IMG/VR virus record: IMGVR_UViG_2537561727_000005 | Location: 1-12,516 of that record | Length of the DNA stretch: 12,516 nucleotides | DNA from: a virus | Taxonomy: Duplodnaviria; Heunggongvirae; Uroviricota; Caudoviricetes | Strand: one strand, 5' to 3' | Part shown: positions 1-12,516 of the stretch, piece after piece | Layout: each line of letters begins with the position of its first letter | How positions within the stretch are numbered: position 1 is the first letter of the stretch | The notes under the pieces: generated by a model | Databases searched by the model: none | What the model was told of the DNA's origin: nothing | Seen by the model: only the letters and a program-made list of their open reading frames with translations | Position numbers and translations under genes: made by a program

Positions 1-87
1 TGTCCATTAAAAATGATGGACATTATTTTTGTAGAGCCGGAGGAAACAGACCAGACGGTTTAAATGAGCCGGTTACTTTATCATCGC

Positions 88-146
88 CATAAAACAAAAC
101 TCGCCGTAGCGAGTTCAGATAAAAGAAAACCCGCACTCGGCGGGTT
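88..146 (-). terminator. Two tandem rho-independent terminators ending the leftward operon
   Basis: Minus-strand hairpins: 7-bp stem 128-134/140-146 (loop 135-139) followed by U-tract from 118-127; 7-bp stem 98-104/109-115 (loop cgta) followed by interrupted U-tract from 88-97. Confidence 0.55.
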
Positions 147-425
147 CGCATTCGTTCAAATTGCGTTTACTTCTTGGCGTTCTGTTCATCCATATCGATA
201 TACCATGGGTTGCTTCCCTTGGGCATGTTTAACGACTGCTCGCGATAGTATCTGATGCGCTCCATGAAATACTCGCGTGAGTGCTCAGGTTGCTCTCATG
301 ATACCTGCTCAGTGATAACAGGTATGTTAAGGCGCTCTCTGTACTCCATGCCTGATGCTGCAAGGTCAACGTTTACCTTGTTCTGTTTTTCTTTCGATTT
401 CTCGGCGATGTTATGCCTGACATTG

Positions 426-668
426 TCAACCCGCCTCCTTCTGAACATAACGGTTATAAATCAGTCCCTGAGGGCCATAAGGAAGCGGGATGTGCAACTC
501 CTCTGGTTCAGAAACTATCCATTCCCCGGCCATCTCCGCTGGAGAGGTAATGATAAGTTGTTTGCTAATAAAAGGACCACTCCTCTCAACAACAAGCTTA
601 CCATCTTCATTAATAAAAGCTTGGATGTCAGGTGTGCTTCCACACTTGGTGATGCAGCGTTTGAACAT
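426..668 (-). CDS. Small Cys/His-containing hypothetical protein (80 aa from ATG 668; 94 aa if ATG 710), at the position lambda ea8.5 occupies
   Basis: ORF in track; ATG at 668 has a GGGGGGA Shine-Dalgarno 6 nt upstream, ATG at 710 has none; last gene of the leftward operon before the terminators. Confidence 0.5.
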   Translation of the reverse strand: MFKRCITKCGSTPDIQAFINEDGKLVVERSGPFISKQLIITSPAEMAGEWIVSEPEELHIPLPYGPQGLIYNRYVQKEAG

Positions 669-794
669 TTTGTGTCCCCCCATTTTATGGACGGGGTAAT
701 TATAACACATTGAAATATAGTAATATTTGACGTAGATTTCTTTTGATCTATAAGCGATTTTTTAATGCTTTTAAGTTATAAATACTTGTTTTCA

Positions 795-1370
795 TCACCC
801 ATCTTGCTGCGGTGCTACTATTGAAAAGTACTCACACCCTTTAGCCCAAATAGTTTTGATAGTTGTCCAACTGACTGGAACCTTGATTTCGATTCTTCCG
901 CTGCCGTCACAAGTTTCGCAATCATCATCACCAAAGCATTCCGGGCAGCTTATAAACGTAGTTTCTGAAAATTCACCGGATAGCACACCCTTAGCGCCGT
1001 TCTCAGCGGTTAGTTTCTTCGGCACTATAACCCAACCATCCGGAGTTACCGGAGAATTGCCATTTATATCGAAGTTTGGCTCTGCGTCCTGAACCAGGAG
1101 GATGTAACCATTCTTGGCAGTATCAAGTTCTAACGCCTCGGTGACGGTACCGAAATAGCGATTACCTAAATCCGCATCACAAGTGCTTACATCAATGGAA
1201 ACCTCCATGCCTTCGATTAATTCTGGCAAGTTGTAAGTTTGGCTTACAGGTTCTGCTCCCAGTGATGCCAGTGCAATTCGTGCCAGTTCCATTTGTTCGC
1301 CACGAGTAAGCCCGTTTTCAAGCGGATTTTTAATGAACAATTCAATACGTTCTTTGGTAATAGTGGTCAT
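795..1370 (-). CDS. Hypothetical 191-aa protein with C-terminal tandem CxxCxG / CxxCxGxG (DnaJ-type) zinc-ribbon motif
   Basis: ATG at 1370 with AAGGA 7 nt upstream; starts 10 nt after stop of upstream gene; motif CPECFGDDDCETCDGSG read directly in translation. Confidence 0.75.
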   Translation of the reverse strand: MTTITKERIELFIKNPLENGLTRGEQMELARIALASLGAEPVSQTYNLPELIEGMEVSIDVSTCDADLGNRYFGTVTEALELDTAKNGYILLVQDAEPNFDINGNSPVTPDGWVIVPKKLTAENGAKGVLSGEFSETTFISCPECFGDDDCETCDGSGRIEIKVPVSWTTIKTIWAKGCEYFSIVAPQQDG

Positions 1371-1380
1371 TTGTTAGTCC

Positions 1381-2136
1381 TTAAACTGCTAGTTGCAATT
1401 GCATTTCAAAGCGGTCGCGTTGTTCACAATACGCAAGAGAACCAGGGCTATTGTGTGCCTCAATCCGTTCTACCATTAATGCTGCGCGTGTCTCTTTACT
1501 TGCAGGTGCATAAGCCCCAGACCAGGCTTTATCAATACCGATGTTTCGAGCGACGTTCGTACTATCTGCGCTGGCTAAGGGTAATTTTGTGAATATCAGC
1601 GGATTTAACATGCGCAATCCATGTAGTTTCGTAACCGGCTGACCATGCCCATCAACAATGTGACGAATCAGGTCTTTCATTCTGGCTACCGCAAGAGTTG
1701 GGCGCTTTACGTCATAGTCGCCACAACTACCGATAGCCACTCGCGGAAACTCATTGCACAAATGAATAAATCGCTCGTCACTTTCATTCATGTGCCACAC
1801 TGGAACGCCAGCTAGTTTTCCGTGAGGCCACTCATTCAGAAGCGCATCATTTTCCTCCTCTCCGCCATCAATAACATCCGGGATAATGGCAAAATCGAAT
1901 CCTGGGTGATTCTTCCAGCGAGCAACAAACTCGTAGTAATCGCTCCAGTCGATTTTGTTTTTGCCAGCTGCTTTCCAGGCGGTGAATGCACCGTTGTCCA
2001 GCGCGAACGACTGACAGTATTCAGCCGCGAGATTGATCTGGCCTGAATGCGCAAAACTGATAAACGCATGTCGCCCTTTCCATGCTCTCATTGCGCACGT
2101 ATCAGGAGTAATAGGCCCACCGTGGTAGTGAATCAT
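1381..2136 (-). CDS. Hypothetical 251-aa enzyme-like protein; N-terminal H-x-H (MIHYHGG) plus later His/Asp clusters (FAHSG, WHMNESD, VDGHG) suggest a metal-dependent hydrolase or phosphoesterase, family unassigned
   Basis: Track ORF 1381-2178; preferred start ATG 2136 has AGGAG 6 nt upstream and sits 2 nt after stop of upstream gene (2138-2140); no P-loop, no DPPY/NPPY, no CxCxxC...H motif seen. Confidence 0.75.
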   Translation of the reverse strand: MIHYHGGPITPDTCAMRAWKGRHAFISFAHSGQINLAAEYCQSFALDNGAFTAWKAAGKNKIDWSDYYEFVARWKNHPGFDFAIIPDVIDGGEEENDALLNEWPHGKLAGVPVWHMNESDERFIHLCNEFPRVAIGSCGDYDVKRPTLAVARMKDLIRHIVDGHGQPVTKLHGLRMLNPLIFTKLPLASADSTNVARNIGIDKAWSGAYAPASKETRAALMVERIEAHNSPGSLAYCEQRDRFEMQLQLAV

Positions 2137-2137
2137 C

Positions 2138-2545
2138 TCACTCTCCTTTGATGCGAATGCCAGTAGCGCGGATTGCATCGATGACTTCAGAAACTTTGTA
2201 TGCCATTACCGTTTGGTAATCATCGTGAAAATCTGTTCGATGAAGCATGCTGCTACGTTCCGGGAGCAGTATTTCCCGCGCTTCCAGTTCTGCAATGCGC
2301 TTTTTTGCTGCTTCCAGTTCATCCAGTAATTCCAGCACGGTAGCCGGATTAGCCTTGGCAACAAAATCCCGGACTGGCTTACAATCAATCTCCGCAATGG
2401 GTTGATACGATGTGTAGCCATGCTGTCTTGTATAACTACCGTGACGAATAACGAAAAAATCACCATTTATTTTTTTAGCCTGCCACTTATCTTCACCGGC
2501 TTTCTCTGCCGCTTCACGCAGTGCCTGAGAGTTAATTTCGCTCAC
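2138..2545 (-). CDS. Ead/Ea22-like early protein (135 aa) with coiled-coil segment LELLDELEAAKKRIAELEA
   Basis: GTG start at 2545 overlapping stop of upstream gene (GTGA), GAGAGG 6 nt upstream; family assignment from memory of lambdoid early-region proteins. Confidence 0.65.
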   Translation of the reverse strand: MSEINSQALREAAEKAGEDKWQAKKINGDFFVIRHGSYTRQHGYTSYQPIAEIDCKPVRDFVAKANPATVLELLDELEAAKKRIAELEAREILLPERSSMLHRTDFHDDYQTVMAYKVSEVIDAIRATGIRIKGE

Positions 2546-2763
2546 TTCGAACCTCTCTGTTTACTGATAAGCTCCAGATCTTGCTGGCAACTGGCACAAG
2601 TCCGACAACCCTGAACGGCCAGTCGTCTTCGTTCATCTATCGGATCGCCACACTCACAACAATGAGTGGCAGATATAGCCTGGTGGTTCAGGCGGCGCAT
2701 TTTTATTGCTGTGTTGCGCTGTAATTCTTCAATTTCTGATGCTGAATCAATGATGTCTGCCAT
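2542..2763 (-). CDS. TraR/DksA-family C4 zinc-finger protein (73 aa)
   Basis: CCECGDPIDERRRLAVQGCRTCASCQ gives a CxxC-17-CxxC spacing typical of DksA/TraR zinc fingers; common in lambdoid early-left regions. Confidence 0.75.
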   Translation of the reverse strand: MADIIDSASEIEELQRNTAIKMRRLNHQAISATHCCECGDPIDERRRLAVQGCRTCASCQQDLELISKQRGSK

Positions 2764-2810
2764 CTTTCATTAATCCCTGAATTGTTGGTTAATACGCTTG
2801 AGGGTGAATG

Positions 2811-2839
2811 CGAATAATAAAAAAGGAGCCTGTAGCTCC
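2811..2839 (-). terminator. Weak terminator-like hairpin between the exo block and the accessory operon
   Basis: Minus strand GGAGC-tacag-GCTCC (2825-2839) followed by TTTTTTATTATT (2811-2824); only a 5-bp stem. Confidence 0.3.
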
Positions 2840-2861
2840 CTGATGATTTTGCTTTTCATGT

Positions 2862-3143
2862 TCACCGTTCCTTAAAGACGCCGTTCAACATGCCGATCGC
2901 CAGGCTTAAATGAGTCGGTGTGAATCCCATCAGCGTTACCGTTTCGCGGTGCTTCTTTAGTACGCTACGGCAAATGTCATCGACGTTTTTATCCGGAAAC
3001 TGCTGTCTGGCTTTTTTGATTTCAGAATTAGCCTGACGGGCAATGCTGCGAAGGGCGTTTTCTTGCTGAGGTGTCATTGAACAAGCCCCATGTCGGCAAG
3101 CATAAGCACACAGAATATGAAGCCCGCTGCCAGAAAAATGCAT
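2862..3143 (-). CDS. Lambda orf61-like small early protein (71 aa if start at ATG 3077, MTPQQENALRS...)
   Basis: Position and sequence resemble lambda small ORF between ea22 and exo, from memory; start ambiguous. Confidence 0.55.
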   Translation of the reverse strand: MHFSGSGLHILCAYACRHGACSMTPQQENALRSIARQANSEIKKARQQFPDKNVDDICRSVLKKHRETVTLMGFTPTHLSLAIGMLNGVFKER

Positions 3144-3153
3144 TCAGTGGTTG

Positions 3154-3345
3154 TCATACCTGGTCTCTCTCATCTGCTTCTGCTTTCGCCACCATCATTT
3201 CCAGCTTTTGTGAAAGGGATGCGGCTAACGTATGAAATTCTTCGTCTGTTTCTACTGATATTGGCACAAACCTGACTCCAATTTGAGCGAGGCTATGTGC
3301 CATCTCGATACTCGTTCTTAACTCAACGGGAGATGCTTTGTGCAT
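3154..3345 (-). CDS. Lambda orf63-like small early protein (63 aa)
   Basis: ATG 3345 with GGGGAG 4 nt upstream; sequence [23 protein letters not shown]... matches my memory of lambda orf63. Confidence 0.6.
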   Translation of the reverse strand: MHKASPVELRTSIEMAHSLAQIGVRFVPISVETDEEFHTLAASLSQKLEMMVAKAEADERDQV

Positions 3346-3500
3346 ACAGCTCCCCGTTTATTATTTATCTCCTCAGCCAGCCGCTGTGCTTTCAGGGGAT
3401 TTCTGATAACAGAAAGGCCGGGAAATACCCAGCCTCGCTTTGTAATGGAGTAGACGAAAGTGATCGCGCCCACCCGGATATTATCGTGAGGATGCGTCAT
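3318..3500 (-). CDS. Lambda orf60a-like small early protein (60 aa, [17 protein letters not shown]...)
   Basis: ATG 3500 overlaps exo stop as ATGA; sequence matches my memory of lambda orf60a. Confidence 0.6.
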
Positions 3501-4177
3501 CGCCATTGCTCCCCAAATACAAAACCAATTTCAGCCAGTGCCTCGTCCATTTTTTCGATGAACTCCGGCACCATCTCGTCAAAACTCGCCATGTAATTTT
3601 CATCCCGCTCAACCACGACATAATGCAGGCCTTCACGCTTCATTCGTGGGTCATAGTTGGCAAAGTACCAGGCATCTTTTCGCGTCACCCACATGCTGTA
3701 CTGCACCTGGGCCATGTAATCCGACTTTATGGCCTCGAAACCACCGAGCCGGAATTTCATGAAATCCCGGGAGGTAAACGGGCATTTCAGTTCAAGGCCG
3801 TTGCCGTCACTGCATAAACCATCGGGAGAGCAGGCGGTGCGCATACTTTCGTCGCGATAGATGATCGGGGATTCAGTAACATTCACGCCGGAAGTAAACT
3901 CAAACAGGGCTCTGGCGTCGTTCTCGTACTGTTTTCCCCAGGCCAGCGCCTTAGCATTAACTTCCGGAGCCACACCGGTGCAAACCTCAGCCAGCAGGGT
4001 GTGGAAGTAGGACATTTTCATGTCAGGCCACTTTTTTCCGGAGCGGGGTTTTGCTATTACGTTATGAACTTCTGAAGCTGTGATGACGCCGAGCCGTAAT
4101 TTGTGCCACGCATCATCTCCCTGTTCGACAGCTCTCACGTCGATCCCGGCACGCTGCAGGATAATGTCCGGTGTCAT
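3497..4177 (-). CDS. exo: Lambda exonuclease (Red-alpha, Exo), intact 226 aa
   Basis: Translation near-identical along its full length to lambda Exo (MTPDIILQR...GFVFGEQWR). Confidence 0.97.
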
Positions 4178-4368
4178 GCTGCCACCTTCTGCTCAGTGGC
4201 TTTCTGTTTCAGGAATCCAAGAGCTTTCACTGCTTCGGCCTGTGTCAGTTCTGACGATGCGCGAATGTCGCGGCGAAATATCTGGGAACAGAGCGGCAAT
4301 AAGTCGTCATCCCATGTTTTATCCAGGGCGATCAGCAGAGTGTTAATCTCCTGCATGGTTTCATCGTT
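4174..4368 (-). pseudogene. bet: bet (Red-beta) C-terminal remnant, about 65 codons; N-terminal roughly 200 codons deleted
   Basis: Translation ...NDETMQEINTLLIALDKTWDDDLLPLCSQIFRRDIRASSELTQAEAVKALGFLKQKA..QKVAA matches lambda Bet C-terminus; upstream in-frame sequence is unrelated and hits a stop at 4420-4422. Confidence 0.9.
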
Positions 4369-4370
4369 AA

Positions 4371-4832
4371 GCAGCAGAGAAGAAACGACGACGAGAGGAG
4401 CAGAAACAGAAAGATAAACTTAAGATTCGAAAACTCGCCTTAAAGCCCCGCAGTTACTGGATTAAACAAGCCCAACAAGCCGTAAACGCCTTCATCAGAG
4501 AAAGAGACCGCGACTTACCATGTATCTCGTGCGGAACGCTCACGTCTGCTCAGTGGGATGCCGGACATTACCGGACAACTGCTGCGGCACCTCAACTCCG
4601 ATTTGATGAACGCAATATTCACAAGCAATGCGTGGTGTGCAACCAGCACAAAAGCGGAAATCTCGTTCCGTATCGCGTCGAACTGATTAGCCGCATCGGG
4701 CAGGAAGCAGTAGACGAAATCGAATCAAACCATAACCGCCATCGCTGGACTGTCGAAGAGTGCAAGGCGATCAAGGCAGAGTACCAACAGAAACTCAAAG
4801 ACCTGCGAAACAGCAGAAGTGAGGCTGCATGA
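4371..4832 (+). pseudogene. ninG: ninG C-terminal remnant, about 150 codons with no start codon; N-terminal roughly 50 codons deleted
   Basis: Frame translation [17 protein letters not shown]...[11 protein letters not shown] matches lambda NinG C-terminal portion; in-frame stop at 4368-4370. Confidence 0.85.
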
Positions 4833-5494
4833 ATATCTACGAAAGAATTGATGGCAGCAAATACCGAAATATTTGGGTAGCTGGCGACCTGCACGGATGC
4901 TACACGAACCTGATGAACAAACTGGATACGATTGGATTCGACACCAAAAAAGACCTGCTCATCTCGGTTGGCGATTTGGTTGATCGCGGTACAGAGAACG
5001 TCGAATGTCTGGAATTAATCACATTCCCCTGGTTCAGAGCTGTGCGTGGAAACCATGAGCAAATGATGATTGATGGCTTATCAGAGCGTGGAAACGTTAA
5101 TCACTGGCTGCTTAATGGCGGTGGCTGGTTCTTTAATCTCGATTACGACAAAGAGACTCTGGCTAAAGTTCTTGCCCATAAAGCAGAAGAACTTCCGTTA
5201 ATCATCGAACTGGTGAGCAAAGATAAAAAATATGTCATTTGCCACGCCGATTATCCTTGTAACGAATACGAATTTGGAAAGCCAGTTGATCCTCAGCAGG
5301 TAATCTGGAACCGCGAACGAATCGGCAACTCACAAGACGGGATCGTGAAAGAAATCAAAGGCGCGGACACGTTCATCTTTGGTCATACGCCAGCAGTGAA
5401 ACCACTCAAATTTGCCAACCAGATGTATATCGATACTGGCGCAGTGTTCTGCGGAAACCTCACATTGATTCAGGTACAGGGAGAAGGCGCATGA
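4829..5494 (+). CDS. Lambda-type Ser/Thr protein phosphatase (orf221/NinI family), intact 221 aa
   Basis: Near-identical to lambda phosphatase incl. GDLHG and GNHE metallophosphatase motifs; ATG overlaps ninG stop (ATGA). Confidence 0.95.
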
Positions 5495-5623
5495 GACTCG
5501 AAAGCGTAGCTAAATTTCATTCGCCAAAAAGCCCGATGATGAGCGACTCACTACTGGCCACAGTTTATTGGTTTTCGTAACTGAGTCATTTTATTATTTT
5601 ATTGCAACTTTTAATCTTTTATA

Positions 5624-5672
5624 GTGCGAAATAAATGGAGCTGGCATTCATTTCGCACTTTATGTTTTTGTT
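5624..5672 (+). terminator. Rho-independent terminator downstream of the phosphatase gene
   Basis: 10-bp stem AGTGCGAAAT (5624-5633) / ATTTCGCACT (5650-5659), 16-nt loop, followed by TTATGTTTTTGTT. Confidence 0.5.
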
Positions 5673-5705
5673 GGACTTATGTTATTTTGATTGAATTCAA
5701 TTCAG

Positions 5706-6665
5706 TTAAAAAAAGAAGGTGATTGCTCCATTTATAAATGAATAGTCATCCCCTGTCTTGAATTCTGATGTTACTTTATTAAATGCTAGTGTGAAGGCTA
5801 CAGGTGCATACCCAATTGTTGCGCCAACTTGATATTCATCAACAGTTTTGTTTAGCGATACTGTTGTTTGTTTCGTCTGTATTGTTTTTCCTTCGAGAGT
5901 ATAGTTGCGATTGACATCTCGTCTTTCCATACCTGCAAAAATCTTGTATTTGAATCCGCTTGTATCGGACATATGCATTAAACCACGGGGAGCCAGCAGA
6001 CCAAAGCCATTATCCGAATTGAAGGTTTTATCATTACCAATGGCAATGGTTGCGCCATATGCTACATATTGAAATAAGTTTCCAGTAACAGCAGAAACTT
6101 CAGGGTATAATCCAACATTAGCACCTAAAATATCCATACTTGGTGTCATGGATAGCATCCCTTTTACAGTATAACCGTAGCGATTCTCTATTTGATCATC
6201 CCATGCATGATATTTTTCTGCCCCAATAATCTCATGAGCTTTATTTTGTACTTTCTGACCGCCTGCGTCGGGGCCAACAACACCTATGTCAGTACCTAAT
6301 CGATAGCGAATCCAGTCATTCGCAAGGGAGTTCCATTCAATACCAGTGTGAGTGTATGCACTAAAAGCTCTGTCTCCAGTTACAGCTGTGTTGTGTCTTT
6401 TATTACTGCCTGATGGAGAGTAAATATCTTGCGCAATATGGAGAGATAATTGGCTCGAGTCTGAGATATCGTGGCTATATCCCAGAAATAAGCCTTGTGA
6501 GTAATCATCTCTGTTTTCATGTTTATTGCCATAAATATCATTAAGTATTGGTTGAAACTTCCCTGCATCATCATTTGCTAATGATAATGCAAGGCTGTTC
6601 GCGATAGCTGAACACGTGGTAAATGACAGAGCAATAAAGACGCCAGCGATGACACTTTTTTTCAT
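5706..6665 (-). CDS. lpxR: Outer-membrane lipid A 3'-O-deacylase LpxR-like (319-aa precursor, 22-aa signal peptide, C-terminal aromatic beta-barrel signature ...AITFFF)
   Basis: Signal peptide with AIA cleavage motif; mature numbering places N9, D10, S34, K67, Q118 and H122 where I recall the Salmonella LpxR active-site residues; 319 aa equals Salmonella LpxR precursor length; gene is markedly AT-rich. Confidence 0.8.
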   Translation of the reverse strand: MKKSVIAGVFIALSFTTCSAIANSLALSLANDDAGKFQPILNDIYGNKHENRDDYSQGLFLGYSHDISDSSQLSLHIAQDIYSPSGSNKRHNTAVTGDRAFSAYTHTGIEWNSLANDWIRYRLGTDIGVVGPDAGGQKVQNKAHEIIGAEKYHAWDDQIENRYGYTVKGMLSMTPSMDILGANVGLYPEVSAVTGNLFQYVAYGATIAIGNDKTFNSDNGFGLLAPRGLMHMSDTSGFKYKIFAGMERRDVNRNYTLEGKTIQTKQTTVSLNKTVDEYQVGATIGYAPVAFTLAFNKVTSEFKTGDDYSFINGAITFFF

Positions 6666-7140
6666 ATGTTATTGTCTTCCTTTTTTTTGAATGGTGCGCG
6701 TATTTTACATACATGAGTTTGTAATACAAGGTGCGTAATCAATATGATGTTTTATAATTGCGTGAGACAATTGATTTATTCGTTTTTTATTGCGGTTTTT
6801 ATTATCTTTTAATGTAACAGTGTTTTTATTAAGTGTGTTTGCGTGGTGTTTTATGTTTTTTATAATTTTTATTTTATTAAATTTAAATGCATTAGTAATG
6901 GCTATTCTATATAGCAATATAAGAACTGTTACAAAAAAAGGGGGGGCAATTACAGGTAGTTATGGATGATGAGTGAAACAGATATTGGAGAACCGGGGAA
7001 TGAATGATGTCTGAGTCTTATATATCAGAACTCCTTCGCTGTCGCTGGGGGCTCCTGTGCTTATGTCGTTTCCCCGATTCGGTTTTGAACGATTACCGAA
7101 TGTTGAAGAATTATGCCAAAATATAGAAAGGATTTACTGC

Positions 7141-7830
7141 ATGAATACCCAATATTTACAGTATGTTCGTGAGCAACTTATGGCAGCTACTGCTGACTTG
7201 AACGGAGCAACGAAAGGCCAGCTCGAAGCCTGGCAGGAGCATGCACAATTTGATACTGGTACATACAAACGAAAGAAGCCGCGCATTCTGGATGTGGTAA
7301 CTGGCAAGATGATTACGCTGGATAATACGCCGACTTCCGGTAAGCAGTCGTACGCAAAAGGTTCATCCATTGCTTTGGTCAGCCCGGTTGAATTCTCAAC
7401 CTCTTCATGGCGCCGCGCGGTTTTGTCTCTCGATGAACATCAGAAAGCATGGTTGCTTTGGTGTTACAGCGAAAGCGTTCGATGGGGGCATCAGGTCACC
7501 ATAACGCAATGGGCATGGAGCGAGTTTAAGGATTTGTTAAGTAACAGAAAAATTGCAGGTAAGACACTGGATCGCCTGAAGACGTTAATCTGGCTGGCTG
7601 CACAGGATGTGAAGAGCGAACTTGCAGGGCGTGAGGCCTATGAATACCAGACACTGGCATCATTGGTGGGAGTGACAACAAAAAACTGGTCCGAGACATT
7701 TACTGAACGCTGGGTTGCAATGAAGCACATTTTTCTACAGCTTGATAGTGATGCTTTATTGCTTGTGACGAGAACACGTTCAAAACAAAAGGCAGCATTT
7801 TTACAGCAAAATATTGCAAAACTGGATTAA
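7141..7830 (+). CDS. Late-gene regulator at the Q position (putative Q-like antiterminator), 229 aa from ATG 7141
   Basis: Track ORF 7057-7830 starts at GTG; ATG 7141 has AAGGA 8 nt upstream; function inferred only from synteny (between nin region and lysis genes), I do not recognise the sequence. Confidence 0.5.
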   Translation: MNTQYLQYVREQLMAATADLNGATKGQLEAWQEHAQFDTGTYKRKKPRILDVVTGKMITLDNTPTSGKQSYAKGSSIALVSPVEFSTSSWRRAVLSLDEHQKAWLLWCYSESVRWGHQVTITQWAWSEFKDLLSNRKIAGKTLDRLKTLIWLAAQDVKSELAGREAYEYQTLASLVGVTTKNWSETFTERWVAMKHIFLQLDSDALLLVTRTRSKQKAAFLQQNIAKLD

Positions 7831-7875
7831 AAGCCATATACTTCATGCAAATTTGGTATGTTGTAAAAAATGTAT

Positions 7876-7902
7876 AAACCCGCTGCCGAGTGGGTTTTTT
7901 TT
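7876..7902 (+). terminator. Terminator-like hairpin 46 bp downstream of the Q-position gene (possible tR'-like element)
   Basis: AAACCC (7876-7881) / GGGTTT (7892-7897), 10-nt loop, followed by T-run to 7902. Confidence 0.4.
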
Positions 7903-8041
7903 ATGCCCCGAGTTGTACTTGTACGGTAAACATGCTGGCTGCTATGTAATAGAGTTTTTTTAGCCTGTAACCTCTTGACTGCATTGAATTGCTTTTGTTA
8001 TGAGTTGTAAGCCAATGTTATCATCTTGTATTGGGGTGGTT

Positions 8042-8758
8042 ATGAAGGATGGTGCGCTGCTCAGGAGTTCTTCACTTTTTATTGCCTACATGGGATGCCT
8101 TGGATGGGGGAGTGCTTATTTCTATGGATGGGGTACTTCTTTTTACTACGGCTTCCCATGGTGGATTGTAGGTGCAGGTGTTGATGATGTTGCCAGAAGT
8201 TTATTTTTTGCAGTTATCGTCATTGCTATATTTCTTATCGGTTGGGGTATTGGTGTTGTATTCTTTTTCGCAGTGAAAAGAAAACATTCTATGCAAGAGC
8301 TAAATGTATTTCGCCTTTATTTTGCTGTGGAATTATTGTTTGTGCCGGCAATTATTGAGTTTTCTATATTGAGACAAAAGATTCAGGTACCTCTTTTGCT
8401 ACTGTCAGCAGCGATTGCGCTGGCGGTTACAATTTCGATAAGATCTTATGGGCGATTTTTATCGGTATCATGCTTCTATGATAAGCCATTTATAAAAAAA
8501 CATTTTTTTGAGATTGTGATGATTGCTTTTGTGGCATATTTCTGGCTTTTTTCATTTCTGACAGGATATTACAAACCACAGTTTAAGAAAGAATATGAAA
8601 TGATTAATTATAATGATGGTTGGTATTATGTTCTTGCTCGTTATGATAATTGTCTGGTTTTGTCTACTTCTTTCAATGCAGGTAGTAAAAGGTTTGTCAT
8701 TTATCAATCAGCACAAGATAAGAATCTTCAGGTTGATATTGTAAGGACCAGAATTTAA
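8042..8758 (+). CDS. Polytopic inner-membrane protein of unknown function (238 aa from ATG 8042; about 5 hydrophobic helices rich in Trp/Tyr/Phe, roughly 70-aa soluble C-terminal domain)
   Basis: Long ORF with GGGGTGG upstream of ATG 8042; strongly AT-rich relative to flanking phage genes; hydrophobic segments read from translation. Confidence 0.75.
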   Translation: MKDGALLRSSSLFIAYMGCLGWGSAYFYGWGTSFYYGFPWWIVGAGVDDVARSLFFAVIVIAIFLIGWGIGVVFFFAVKRKHSMQELNVFRLYFAVELLFVPAIIEFSILRQKIQVPLLLLSAAIALAVTISIRSYGRFLSVSCFYDKPFIKKHFFEIVMIAFVAYFWLFSFLTGYYKPQFKKEYEMINYNDGWYYVLARYDNCLVLSTSFNAGSKRFVIYQSAQDKNLQVDIVRTRI

Positions 8759-9137
8759 TTGGCTGCATAAATAATATTTTAAGTTGCAAGTTGGCTATTC
8801 GTAGGAATAGAACCTTAGGCATGCTGAATGCGTTTCCTGAACATTGTTTTATAAACTGTGTCTGCTTGCTGTTGTGATCCTGCTTTTAGTGATGGTGATG
8901 ATGGATTTCACCAGCAGGATAATGTTGGTACTGACTGATGGCGCTCTGGTCTGCGGCATTGTGGTATTGCTGTGGCCGATGATGAAAGAACAGAATGAAT
9001 AATTCTTGACTTTTTTGTTTACTGTTTATTAAAAAATCAACCGCATGGTGAATCCTCCTTGGAGGGGCTAAATGATCGAGTTTTAAGGGCACGTAGCGAG
9101 TTCTGTTTGATCATTGCAGAACTTAGCGGGAGGCGCC

Positions 9138-9248
9138 ATGCGTACATCACTAATGTTATTTCCTTCTATCATTTTCCTTGTGAGTTCTGGCTGCGCATGG
9201 CGCGGCCTTTTTTTTATGACCTGCCACTGGCAGATGGTCATCCTGTGA
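9138..9248 (+). CDS. Candidate small hydrophobic peptide (36 aa, MRTSLMLFPSIIFLVSSGCAWRGLFFMTCHWQMVIL)
   Basis: ATG with GGGAGG Shine-Dalgarno 4 nt upstream; single predicted TM segment; not in ORF track (below 60 aa). Confidence 0.3.
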   Translation: MRTSLMLFPSIIFLVSSGCAWRGLFFMTCHWQMVIL

Positions 9249-9391
9249 TTTGATTCCGGTTCCGGCTTTTTAACTCTGTTCCTGTACACGGGAGAAATTC
9301 TATGTCGATTAATCGTTATGATATTGGTTACAAGAAGTACCACGTATTGTGTTGAGATAGAAAGCATGGTGCCAGAGGTAAATGCAGCAGC

Positions 9392-9444
9392 ATAATAAAA
9401 AAGAGCCAGCGCAGAAGAGAACGGGTAAAAGAGTCTGCGCTGGC
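9392..9444 (-). terminator. Strong rho-independent terminator (minus strand)
   Basis: Perfect 11-bp GC-rich stem GCCAGCGCAGA (9405-9415) / TCTGCGCTGGC (9434-9444), then U-tract TCTTTTTTATTAT (complement of 9392-9404). Confidence 0.75.
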
Positions 9445-9489
9445 GTGGGGATATTCCCCGTGGAGAAATGATATGTAACACACATCGGG
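9392..9489 (-). ncRNA. Candidate small RNA of about 98 nt with its own promoter and intrinsic terminator
   Basis: Minus-strand promoter TTGACA (9523-9518), 16-bp spacer, TATAGA (9501-9496); no credible ORF between predicted start (about 9489) and terminator; internal stem-loop GGGGA-ATA-TCCCC. Confidence 0.4.
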
Positions 9490-9495
9490 AACCTT

Positions 9496-9543
9496 TCTAT
9501 ATAAACATTATCATTATTGTCAATCATAACAGTCAGGTATTAT
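9496..9543. promoter_or_regulatory. Back-to-back divergent promoters with overlapping -35 hexamers (leftward for the sRNA, rightward toward the holin; rightward one is a candidate late promoter)
   Basis: Plus strand TTGTCA (9517-9522), 15-bp spacer, TATTAT (9538-9543); minus strand TTGACA (9523-9518), 16-bp spacer, TATAGA (9501-9496). Confidence 0.4.
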
Positions 9544-9560
9544 GACGTTTATGCATCAGG

Positions 9561-9595
9561 GCCATCAGGAATTAACTGGTGGCTTTTTATTGTTG
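9561..9595 (+). terminator. Rho-independent terminator just upstream of the holin (tR'-like)
   Basis: 8-bp stem GCCATCAG (9561-9568) / CTGGTGGC (9576-9583) with one G-U pair, 7-nt loop, followed by TTTTTATTGTTG. Confidence 0.6.
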
Positions 9596-9623
9596 TCAGC
9601 TTCCGGATAACGGGAGACGGGGT

Positions 9624-9839
9624 ATGTACCAGATGGAAAAAATAACAACAGGTGTGTCATACACCACGTCAGCGGTGGGGACGGGATACTGGCTACTGCA
9701 GTTGCTGGACAAAGTCTCCCCATCCCAGTGGGTGGCAATAGGCGTATTGGGTAGCTTGGTGTTTGGCTTGCTGACGTATCTGACAAACCTTTATTTCAAG
9801 ATTAAAGAAGATAAGCGTAAGGCTGCGAGAGGTGAATAA
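9624..9839 (+). CDS. S: Class II holin of the phage-21 S type (pinholin), 71 aa, with dual-start motif M-Y-Q-M (holin/antiholin)
   Basis: Close match to my memory of S21/EssD (…[51 protein letters not shown]); GGAGACGGGG upstream of ATG 9624; track ORF extends to GTG 9579, which lies inside the upstream terminator. Confidence 0.9.
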
Positions 9840-10117
9840 TGTCGCCATCATTACGCAAGGCTGTTGCTGCTGCTATTGGTGGTGGGGCTGTTGCCATAGC
9901 GTCTGTGCTCATCACTGGTCCGAGTGGTGACGATGGCCTGGAAGGTGTCAGCTACATACCATACGAAGATATCGTTGGCGTATGGACTGTATGTCACGGA
10001 CACACCGGAAAAGACATCATTCCCGGTAAAACGTATACCGAAGCAGAATGCAAAGCCCTCCTGAATAAAGACCTTGCCACGGTCGCCAGACAAATAAACC
10101 CGTACATCAACGTCGAT
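9839..10117 (+). pseudogene. R: SAR endolysin (phage-21 R type lysozyme) N-terminal fragment, about 93 codons, C-terminal half deleted
   Basis: N-terminal SAR segment ([20 protein letters not shown]) and catalytic Glu/Asp/Thr region match R21 from memory; homology stops at ...NPYINVDI where terminase A sequence begins. Confidence 0.85.
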
Positions 10118-10418
10118 ATATCGAACAGTCAGGTTAACAGGCTGCGGCATTTTGTCCGCGCCGGGCTTCGCTCACTGTTCAGGCCGGAGCCACAGACCGC
10201 CGTTGAATGGGCGGATGCTAATTACTATCTCCCGAAAGAATCCGCATACCAGGAAGGGCGCTGGGAAACACTGCCCTTTCAGCGGGCCATCATGAATGCG
10301 ATGGGCAGCGACTACATCCGTGAGGTGAATGTGGTGAAGTCTGCCCGTGTCGGTTATTCCAAAATGCTGCTGGGTGTTTATGCCTACTTTATAGAGCACA
10401 AGCAGCGCAACACCCTTA
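10118..10418 (+). pseudogene. A: Terminase large subunit gpA N-terminal fragment (codons about 3-100), fused in frame to the endolysin fragment
   Basis: [100 protein letters not shown] matches lambda gpA N-terminus. Confidence 0.9.
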
Positions 10419-10784
10419 TTCCAGGTTGTCCTGGGGGCTGCCGCCATTGCCGGATCATTCTTTACCGCCGGAGCCACCCTTGCAGCATGGGGGGCAGCCA
10501 TTGGGGCCGGTGGTATGACCGGCATCCTGTTTTCTCTCGGTGCCAGTATGGTACTTGGTGGTGTGGCGCAGATGCTGGCACCGAAAGCCAGAACTCCCCG
10601 TACACAGACAACGGATAACGGCAAACAAAACACGTATTTCTCCTCACTGGATAACATGGTTGCCCAGGGCAATGTTCTGCCCGTTCTGTACGGTGAAATG
10701 CGCGTGGGGTCGCGGGTGGTATCTCAGGAAATCAGCACGGCAGACGAAGGGGACGGTGGTCAGGTTGTGGTGATTGGTCGCTGA
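10419..10784 (+). pseudogene. I: Tail assembly protein gpI C-terminal fragment (about 120 codons), out of frame with the preceding gpA fragment
   Basis: [48 protein letters not shown]...GQVVVIGR matches lambda gpI C-terminus; stop at 10782-10784. Confidence 0.9.
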
Positions 10785-10802
10785 TGCAAAACATTTTATG
10801 TG

Positions 10803-10830
10803 AAACCGCCTGCGGGCGGTTTTGTCGTTT
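10803..10830 (+). other. Hairpin in the I-J intergenic region (terminator-like or RNA structure)
   Basis: 8-bp stem AAACCGCC (10803-10810) / GGCGGTTT (10815-10822), loop TGCG, followed by TGTCGTTT. Confidence 0.35.
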
Positions 10831-10841
10831 ATGGAGCGTGA

Positions 10842-12516
<1,675 letters not shown>

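Follow-up and report, generated by a model that had tools for sequence, protein, structure and literature searches.

Escherichia coli TW00353 carries a heavily deleted, cryptic lambdoid prophage in which the remains of an endolysin gene (R), the terminase large-subunit gene (A) and tail-assembly gene I have been joined by two deletions. Very probably, these two scars reflect the ordinary decay of a cryptic prophage: an old loss of about 14 kb between A and I, shared with other genomes, followed by a loss between R and A that is restricted to TW00353. Scars and fused pseudogenes of this sort in cryptic lambdoid prophages are of a well-known kind. The nearest described counterparts are the nohD/terminase-pseudogene region of DLP12 in K-12 and CP-933K/Sp3 of O157:H7. 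New here are a deletion allele confined to one strain, a seemingly shared origin of the A–I junction and a pseudogene end in K-12, and the repeated use of the same deletion endpoints in related strains. The R–A junction in itself matters little, as it is one more private deletion allele in an effector-carrying cryptic prophage.

The DNA analyzed here (the window, 12,516 nt) comprises bases 1–12516 of scaffold JH954035.1 (GCA_000304115.2) and ends at a gap of 10 N. TW00353, an atypical EPEC strain (O157:H16, ST10, phylogroup A, eae-epsilon), is of human origin and comes from the USA (PMC5039186). The backbone of the window is 98.6–99.4% identical to the CP-933K/Sp3-type prophage of O157:H7, and almost identical copies of the prophage (99.4–100%) were found in six complete genomes, namely those of STECUZB006, FORC 064, BA92, Z1323CEC0012, MFDS1001074 and Z1323PEC0012. 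In the relatives, the CP-933K/Sp3-like element adjoins ybhC at the lambda attachment site, and nleB2, nleC and nleH1-1 lie downstream. The backbone shared with CP-933K extends from the exo region to the endolysin and includes lpxR, Q, the holin gene and R. However, CP-933K has an intact holin–endolysin–Rz cassette, whereas in the window the endolysin gene is broken and Rz is lost; CP-933K also has a different packaging module (DUF1441-type) and separate deletions of its own. The features of the window that bear on the two junctions are listed in Table 1.

Table 1. Features around the two deletion junctions, in window coordinates.
Feature	Position	Strand	Basis
Holin gene, class II (S21-type), intact, 71 codons	9624..9839	+	full-length Pfam PF04971, E=1e-32
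Chimeric ORF, 259 codons: R(1-94) + gpA(3-103) + 65 out-of-frame gene I codons	9839..10618	+	GenBank EKI30404.1
R', R21-type SAR endolysin gene, nt 1-282 (codons 1-94)	9839..10120	+	100% identical to intact rrrD of Z1323PEC0012 and BA92 up to 10120
Junction 1, 5-bp microhomology ATATA of R parent and Nu1/A parent	10116..10120		three-way base alignments: parental R, window, parental Nu1/A
A', lambda-type terminase large-subunit gene, nt 5-308 (codons 3-103), in frame with R'	10116..10419	+	lambda 715-1018, 1 mismatch in 304 nt
Junction 2, 3-bp microhomology TAT of A (lambda 1016-1018) and I (lambda 15077-15079)	10417..10419		base alignment
'I, 3' 55% of tail-assembly gene I (gpI 103-223 + stop)	10417..10784	+	95.5% nt identity to lambda from 15077 onward, 96.3% to phage 21
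J', 5' part of tail-tip (host-specificity) gene	10845..12516	+	Pfam FNIII-A_GpJ, Phage_Tail_Tip, Ig_GpJ_C

To locate the junctions, the window was compared with the genomes of lambda and phage 21 by BLAST, which returned three adjoining segments. The first (9633–10123) matched S and R of phage 21 with 83% identity. The second (10116–10419) matched lambda 715–1018, which lies inside gene A (start at 711). The third (10417–11100) matched lambda 15077–15760, that is, I and then J, with 95.5% identity and phage 21 with 96.3%. This alignment, proposed as a check in an earlier note made from the sequence alone, placed both junctions where that note had put them.

For the R–A junction (junction 1), an undeleted parental arrangement is available in Z1323PEC0012 (locus L135), in which the order is holin, intact endolysin, Rz, a Rha-family regulator, ylcI, cos, nohD/Nu1 and the same A–I scar. 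The R allele of this strain matches the window up to 10120 (L135 8555), and its Nu1/A sequence matches the window again from 10116 (L135 11267), as does lambda A from nt 715. With the breakpoint marked by a slash, the R parent reads ...AACGTCGATATA/CCGG, and the parent covering the end of Nu1 and the start of A reads ...GAGTGAATATA/TCGAAC. The overlap had previously been described as possibly ATAT, at about 10118; the position stands, while the microhomology is one base longer. R codon 94 and A codon 3 are the same codon, ATA (Ile), so that the fusion is in frame, which bears out the suggestion that the endolysin continues in frame as terminase from codon 3. The junction also creates a perfect 10-bp palindrome, CGATATATCG (10113–10122), that is present in neither parent.

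In Z1323PEC0012, the two flanks of junction 1 are 2716 bp apart (L135 8556–11271 is missing from the window) and are ~99.9–100% identical to the window. The lost DNA comprises the 3' end of R, Rz/Rz1, the Rha-family gene, ylcI, cos, nohD/Nu1 and A codons 1–2. All the losses listed in the earlier note (R 3' end, Rz/Rz1, cos and Nu1) are therefore correct, but the list was incomplete, as it left out the Rha-family gene and ylcI. If the parent was BA92-like, with the two deletions of that strain already present, the loss amounts to 908 bp.

At the A–I junction (junction 2), the match to lambda A runs as far as window 10419, and that to lambda I sets in at 10417 (lambda 15077). The parental sequences are ...CACCCTTAT/CTGG for A and ...GGCGTAT/TCCAG for I. 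A codon 103 is joined to I codon 102/103 out of frame, and about 14.06 kb is lost in lambda coordinates (1019–15076), comprising the remainder of A, the genes W, B, C, Nu3, D, E, FI, FII, Z, U, V, G, T, H, M, L and K, and the first 102 codons of I. Indeed, the gpI sequence had been said to start at 10419 in another frame, and 119 of 121 amino acids match gpI in the +1 frame. The proposed deletion of the whole head and tail-shaft gene set was likewise confirmed by the flanks, which correspond to lambda 1018 and 15077.

One or both junctions might have arisen during sequencing or assembly of the 2012 draft, for instance where different resident prophages with lysozyme, terminase or tail sequences in common were wrongly joined. 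Such an origin is suggested by the structure of the draft scaffold, which has the 10-N gap just after the window and apparently another prophage beyond it, and by the presence of several copies of R21-type, A-type and I-type sequences in E. coli genomes. However, both junctions lie inside one contig without a gap. A separate Logan assembly of run SRR427085, whose isolate may or may not be TW00353, contains a 2586-bp contig identical to window 9663–12248, which spans both of them. In addition, junction 2 is identical in five finished genomes, and overlaps of 5 and 3 bp are too short for a repeat-collapse misjoin, being far below any assembler k-mer. Sequencing or assembly error, which the earlier note had named as a possible objection, is thus unlikely, and we consider an artefact of the draft extremely improbable. 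Chance similarity does not account for the matches either, since the flanks share 99.7–100% identity with their parents along stretches of hundreds to thousands of bases. Both junctions are real.

To determine how widely the junctions are distributed, we searched 5426 complete E. coli genomes. Junction 2 was found base-for-base identical in five of them (FORC 064, STECUZB006, BA92, Z1323PEC0012 and Z1323CEC0012). In contrast, junction 1 was not detected in any of the 5426 genomes by megablast with a 751-bp and a 121-bp query, and exact and degenerate junction patterns gave no match to it in GTDB species representatives, JGI metagenomes or IMG/VR. Records of exactly this chimeric protein come from TW00353 and the SRA run SRR427085 only. 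The idea that the same junctions might occur in other isolates thus holds for junction 2 and fails for junction 1, which is known from TW00353 only. As junction 2 is common to several genomes and junction 1 is absent elsewhere, junction 2 is the older of the two events and was inherited, and junction 1 is a recent event, private to the TW00353 lineage.

The chimeric ORF described in the earlier note is present at the proposed position and encodes 259 residues. Its database name is 'lysozyme domain protein'. Residues 1–94 share 84% amino acid identity with phage 21 R, and the similarity stops at residue 94; the C-terminal 71 codons of the endolysin (residues 95–165 of the lysozyme) are missing. 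Residues 92–194 align with gpA 1–103 at 101 of 103 positions (98%), and terminase residues 104–641, i.e. most of the ATPase and the whole nuclease, are absent. Compared with its two parents, the chimera therefore consists of 94 N-terminal residues 84% identical to R21 followed by 101 residues 98% identical to gpA 3–103, and neither parent is complete in the window. Accordingly, the Pfam matches are partial: Phage_lysozyme (PF00959) is covered only at profile positions 3–71 of 125, and GpA_ATPase only at positions 3–60 of 247. The full lysozyme fold, taken as about 165 residues with a complete PF00959 profile, is not reached by the chimera. The I-derived part, read in its own frame (10419–10784), is identical to gpI 103–223 at 119 of 121 positions (98%). 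This frame, for which the junction provides no start codon, is shifted by +1 relative to the chimeric ORF, and the tail of the ORF consequently consists of 65 nonsense codons.

It is conceivable that the fusion of R' to the gpA fragment is a functional protein, for example one in which the SAR domain tethers the N-terminal, Nu1-binding segment of gpA to the membrane and this segment hinders the terminase of superinfecting lambdoid phages. R' and A' are indeed joined in frame, and the translation aligned to R21 retains the SAR segment and positions E35, D44 and T50, which we take to be the catalytic Glu/Asp/Thr of R21. The gpA part (residues 3–103) is kept including KSARVGYS, presumably the Walker A motif, and an intact holin gene precedes the ORF in the late operon. 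However, the fusion is known from one isolate only, its last 65 codons are gene I read out of frame, and both domains are cut well within their folds. Moreover, this region has been lost by quite different deletions in the sister strains, which indicates neutral or lysis-avoiding decay rather than selection of a chimeric product. We therefore regard a functional fusion as very unlikely. Judged from its sequence, the chimeric ORF most likely represents a pseudogene without function, and EKI30404.1 should be annotated as such and not as a 'lysozyme domain protein'. The in-frame joining of R' and A' would then be an accident of the breakpoint, yielding a 259-codon product that lacks the C-terminal lobe of the lysozyme and the terminase past the Walker A segment, and ends in the 65 out-of-frame codons. 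The holin gene, called identically on the source contig, lies directly 5' of the chimeric ORF and is the sole complete lysis gene remaining in the window; its product is identical to the holins of O157 CP-933K and BA92.

Decay is ongoing in this lineage, as five near-identical sister prophages all differ in their deletions within the same lysis–packaging segment. The deletions of the sister strains are given here relative to Z1323PEC0012. FORC 064 has lost 432 bp between holin nt 63–69 and R nt 280–286 (junction GGGATAC/GATATAC). BA92 has lost 293 bp inside Rz and a further 1515 bp from downstream of Rz into nohD. STECUZB006 has lost 1028 bp from the holin site of FORC 064 to the Rz-end site of BA92 (GACGGGATA/GACAGGATA), and in addition the same 1515 bp as BA92. 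In MFDS1001074, 4909 bp is missing from an upstream gene into J. The six near-identical strains form a natural deletion series in one 3.5-kb lysis–packaging segment.

Several endpoints of this series are used more than once. The left endpoint of junction 1 in the window is the right endpoint in FORC 064. The holin site GGGATAC (S nt 63–69; L135 8115–8127; window 9680–9692) is the left endpoint in both FORC 064 and STECUZB006, and the Rz-end site GGATA/ACCGCG (L135 9143–9151) is the right endpoint in both BA92 and STECUZB006. The R site (nt 280–289, GTCGATATACCGG) is a breakpoint, within a few bases, in four different junctions: R to A nt 5 in the window, S to R in FORC 064, R to FI in an E2-type junction, and R to A nt 1046 in an LR-31-type junction (breakpoints at window 10112–10123, L002 3287–3293, L011 5059–5060 and L001 6217–6226). 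The R–FI junction, at R nt 281, occurs in strain E2 and nine other genomes (10 in all) in a prophage lineage unrelated to that of the window. The R–A junction at lambda 1756, with the R breakpoint at nt 280–289, occurs in DLP12 of LR-31 and PEC41 (two genomes), again in an unrelated prophage lineage. This series, with its reused endpoints, would lend itself well to investigating the way in which prophages are disarmed and the speed at which this happens.

These observations raise the question of whether breakage is site-directed. In that case, the breakpoints would be set by a site-specific process at the R site and at two similar sites, GACGGGATACTGG in S and GACAGGATAACCG close to the end of Rz, and junction 1 would be one outcome among several. 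Such a process could be nicking or double-strand breakage that recurs at these sites, pausing of replication, or the loss of an IS element that was excised together with its flank (IEE-type excision deletion). Apart from the four junctions at the R site and the double use of each of the two other sites, a placement simulation favours this possibility: for the six sister-strain events, the probability of at least three endpoint coincidences within 6 bp was ~7–9e-4, a value that was calculated post hoc on a small sample. Longer exact repeats were also at hand but were not used. The segment in which the sister deletions lie contains 138 exact 8-bp and 6 exact 10-bp direct-repeat pairs, and the events used 2–5 bp. 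A model in which the longest direct repeats are preferred was rejected for this reason, and such a preference does not explain the reuse of endpoints.

On the other hand, the analysis of endpoint coincidence was made post hoc, and the E2-type junction surfaced partly because the query ends at the R site. Furthermore, the three hot sites resemble each other. As imperfect direct repeats, they are expected to give some reuse of endpoints and to favour some pairings. The chimeric proteins recovered, a small set, fuse elsewhere, at R residues 22–29. When proteins were searched with the intact endolysin, the best 120 of 1129 matches were almost all full length, and the few chimeras had other fusion points. 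No insertion or break at the R site was found in 121 IMG/VR prophages, a collection biased towards intact prophages, and a scan of IMG/VR for the left part of R followed by non-R sequence returned only a SNP variant, the 120 sampled loci all being intact. No hairpins were found at the reused sites, the R site being less structured than shuffled controls, and there were no Chi sites in the locus.

Three further candidates for a special feature of the R site were dismissed. A mosaic boundary between alleles was rejected, as the parental R matches the O157 allele with 94–100% identity in all 50-nt bins along the gene. An IS element at this site was rejected as well; the IS1203 copy of O157 CP-933K lies in exo, not in R. 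Finally, a cosN-like cut downstream of the R site, where a resemblance to lambda cosN of 9/12 was noted by eye, was dropped because the FORC 064 junction retains this stretch.

Taken together, we consider it improbable that the R21-type lysis cassette holds sequence-specific fragile sites (R nt 280–289, S nt 63–69 GGGATAC and the Rz-end GGATAAC) at which deletions start repeatedly and independently. If such sites did exist, the loss of lysis genes would be channelled by a directed break, pause or excision and not by random slippage; the deletions in different E. coli lineages and prophages would be independent, and junction 1 would be one instance of them. The reuse of endpoints is a pattern for which no cause was found, and we give a specific mechanism behind it a small chance without presenting it as a finding. 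Among the chimeric proteins, P0027, P0093, P0118, P0131 and P0016 have non-R sequence joined to the R21-type endolysin at R residues 22–29. The fused partner is a holin (Pfam) in P0027 and P0093 and a duplicated R segment in P0016, with no identity given for P0118 and P0131. R residues 22–29 may be another recurrent fusion region in the lysis cassette.

Enterobacterial prophages decay by illegitimate deletions at short homologies, whereby lysis, packaging and structural genes are lost and cargo genes are kept. The window and its relatives follow this textbook course in that their junctions likewise comprise 2–5 bp and many alternative sister alleles exist. However, textbook decay predicts no reuse of endpoints beyond random placement, and such reuse is seen in the window and its relatives. 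For the prophage of TW00353, decay very probably proceeded in two steps. In the first, a deletion of about 14 kb joined A after codon 103 to the middle of gene I at TAT, with the loss of every head and tail-shaft gene. In the second, which took place only in the TW00353 lineage, the DNA from endolysin codon 94 to codon 3 of the terminase gene, 2716 bp (or 908 bp) in length, was lost at ATATA. Both events could be RecA-independent short-homology deletions, arising by replication slippage or microhomology-mediated end joining; judging by the microhomology at the junctions, the events look like slippage or end joining. The net effect would be a prophage that is unable to lyse the cell or to package DNA but retains its cargo genes. 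We found nothing contrary to the reading of both junctions as deletions; the apparently non-random placement of endpoints would argue against purely random short-homology deletion.

A related scar is present in E. coli K-12. DLP12 (nohD/terminase-A pseudogene/tfaD) also carries this lambda-type A fragment (309 nt with 1 mismatch), which stops after codon 103 at exactly the base where A' of the window stops. No literature was found on aaaD of DLP12, which we take to be the K-12 name of this terminase-A pseudogene. In MG1655, DLP12 (L007 4296–4312 versus window 10411–10424) keeps TCCAG, the first 5 nt of the I-derived side of junction 2. After TCCAG, it switches to a tail-fibre-assembly (pseudo)gene, whereas the window continues into gene I. 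K-12 also differs in keeping nohD and the start codon of A, both of which are absent from the window, and thus has no junction 1. The DLP12 locus adjoins appY/ompT, a chromosomal site different from that of the window-type prophage. At the point corresponding to the K-12 junction, four intact tfa alleles read TCCGG. Since K-12 keeps TCCAG, its junction looks like a second deletion nested on the A–I scar, between I TATTCCAG and tfa TATTCCGG, as suggested by comparison with the four tfa alleles. The pseudogene end in K-12 DLP12 and the A–I scar of the attachment-site prophages in ST10-like EPEC/STEC hence appear to be the same ancestral event. A common origin would imply the exchange of modules between resident prophages.

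Some further features of the window and its scaffold should be mentioned. J' runs to the end of the contig, and the annotation of the relatives calls J truncated. Past the 10-N gap (L009 12517–16941), the scaffold carries a second complete lysozyme, an Rz-like protein, a TonB_C protein, a C-terminal fragment of J and lom genes. This part is probably a different prophage joined by scaffolding, and the order of the scaffold is therefore not to be trusted. According to the annotation of relatives, the truncated genes bet (minus strand) and ninG (plus strand) meet at ~4371, within window ~4174–4832. With this join, the window lacks the entire immunity and replication region, from gam to ninF. Z1323PEC0012 has a different, larger deletion in the bet/ninG region, and window 2071–4557 is absent there. 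Upstream of the late operon, at 5491–6665, 72 nt remain of a lambda-type Q gene; next comes lpxR (lipid A deacylase) in inverse orientation, and a second Q gene, different and complete, lies after lpxR at 7141–7830. This order looks like the result of a moron insertion combined with module replacement.
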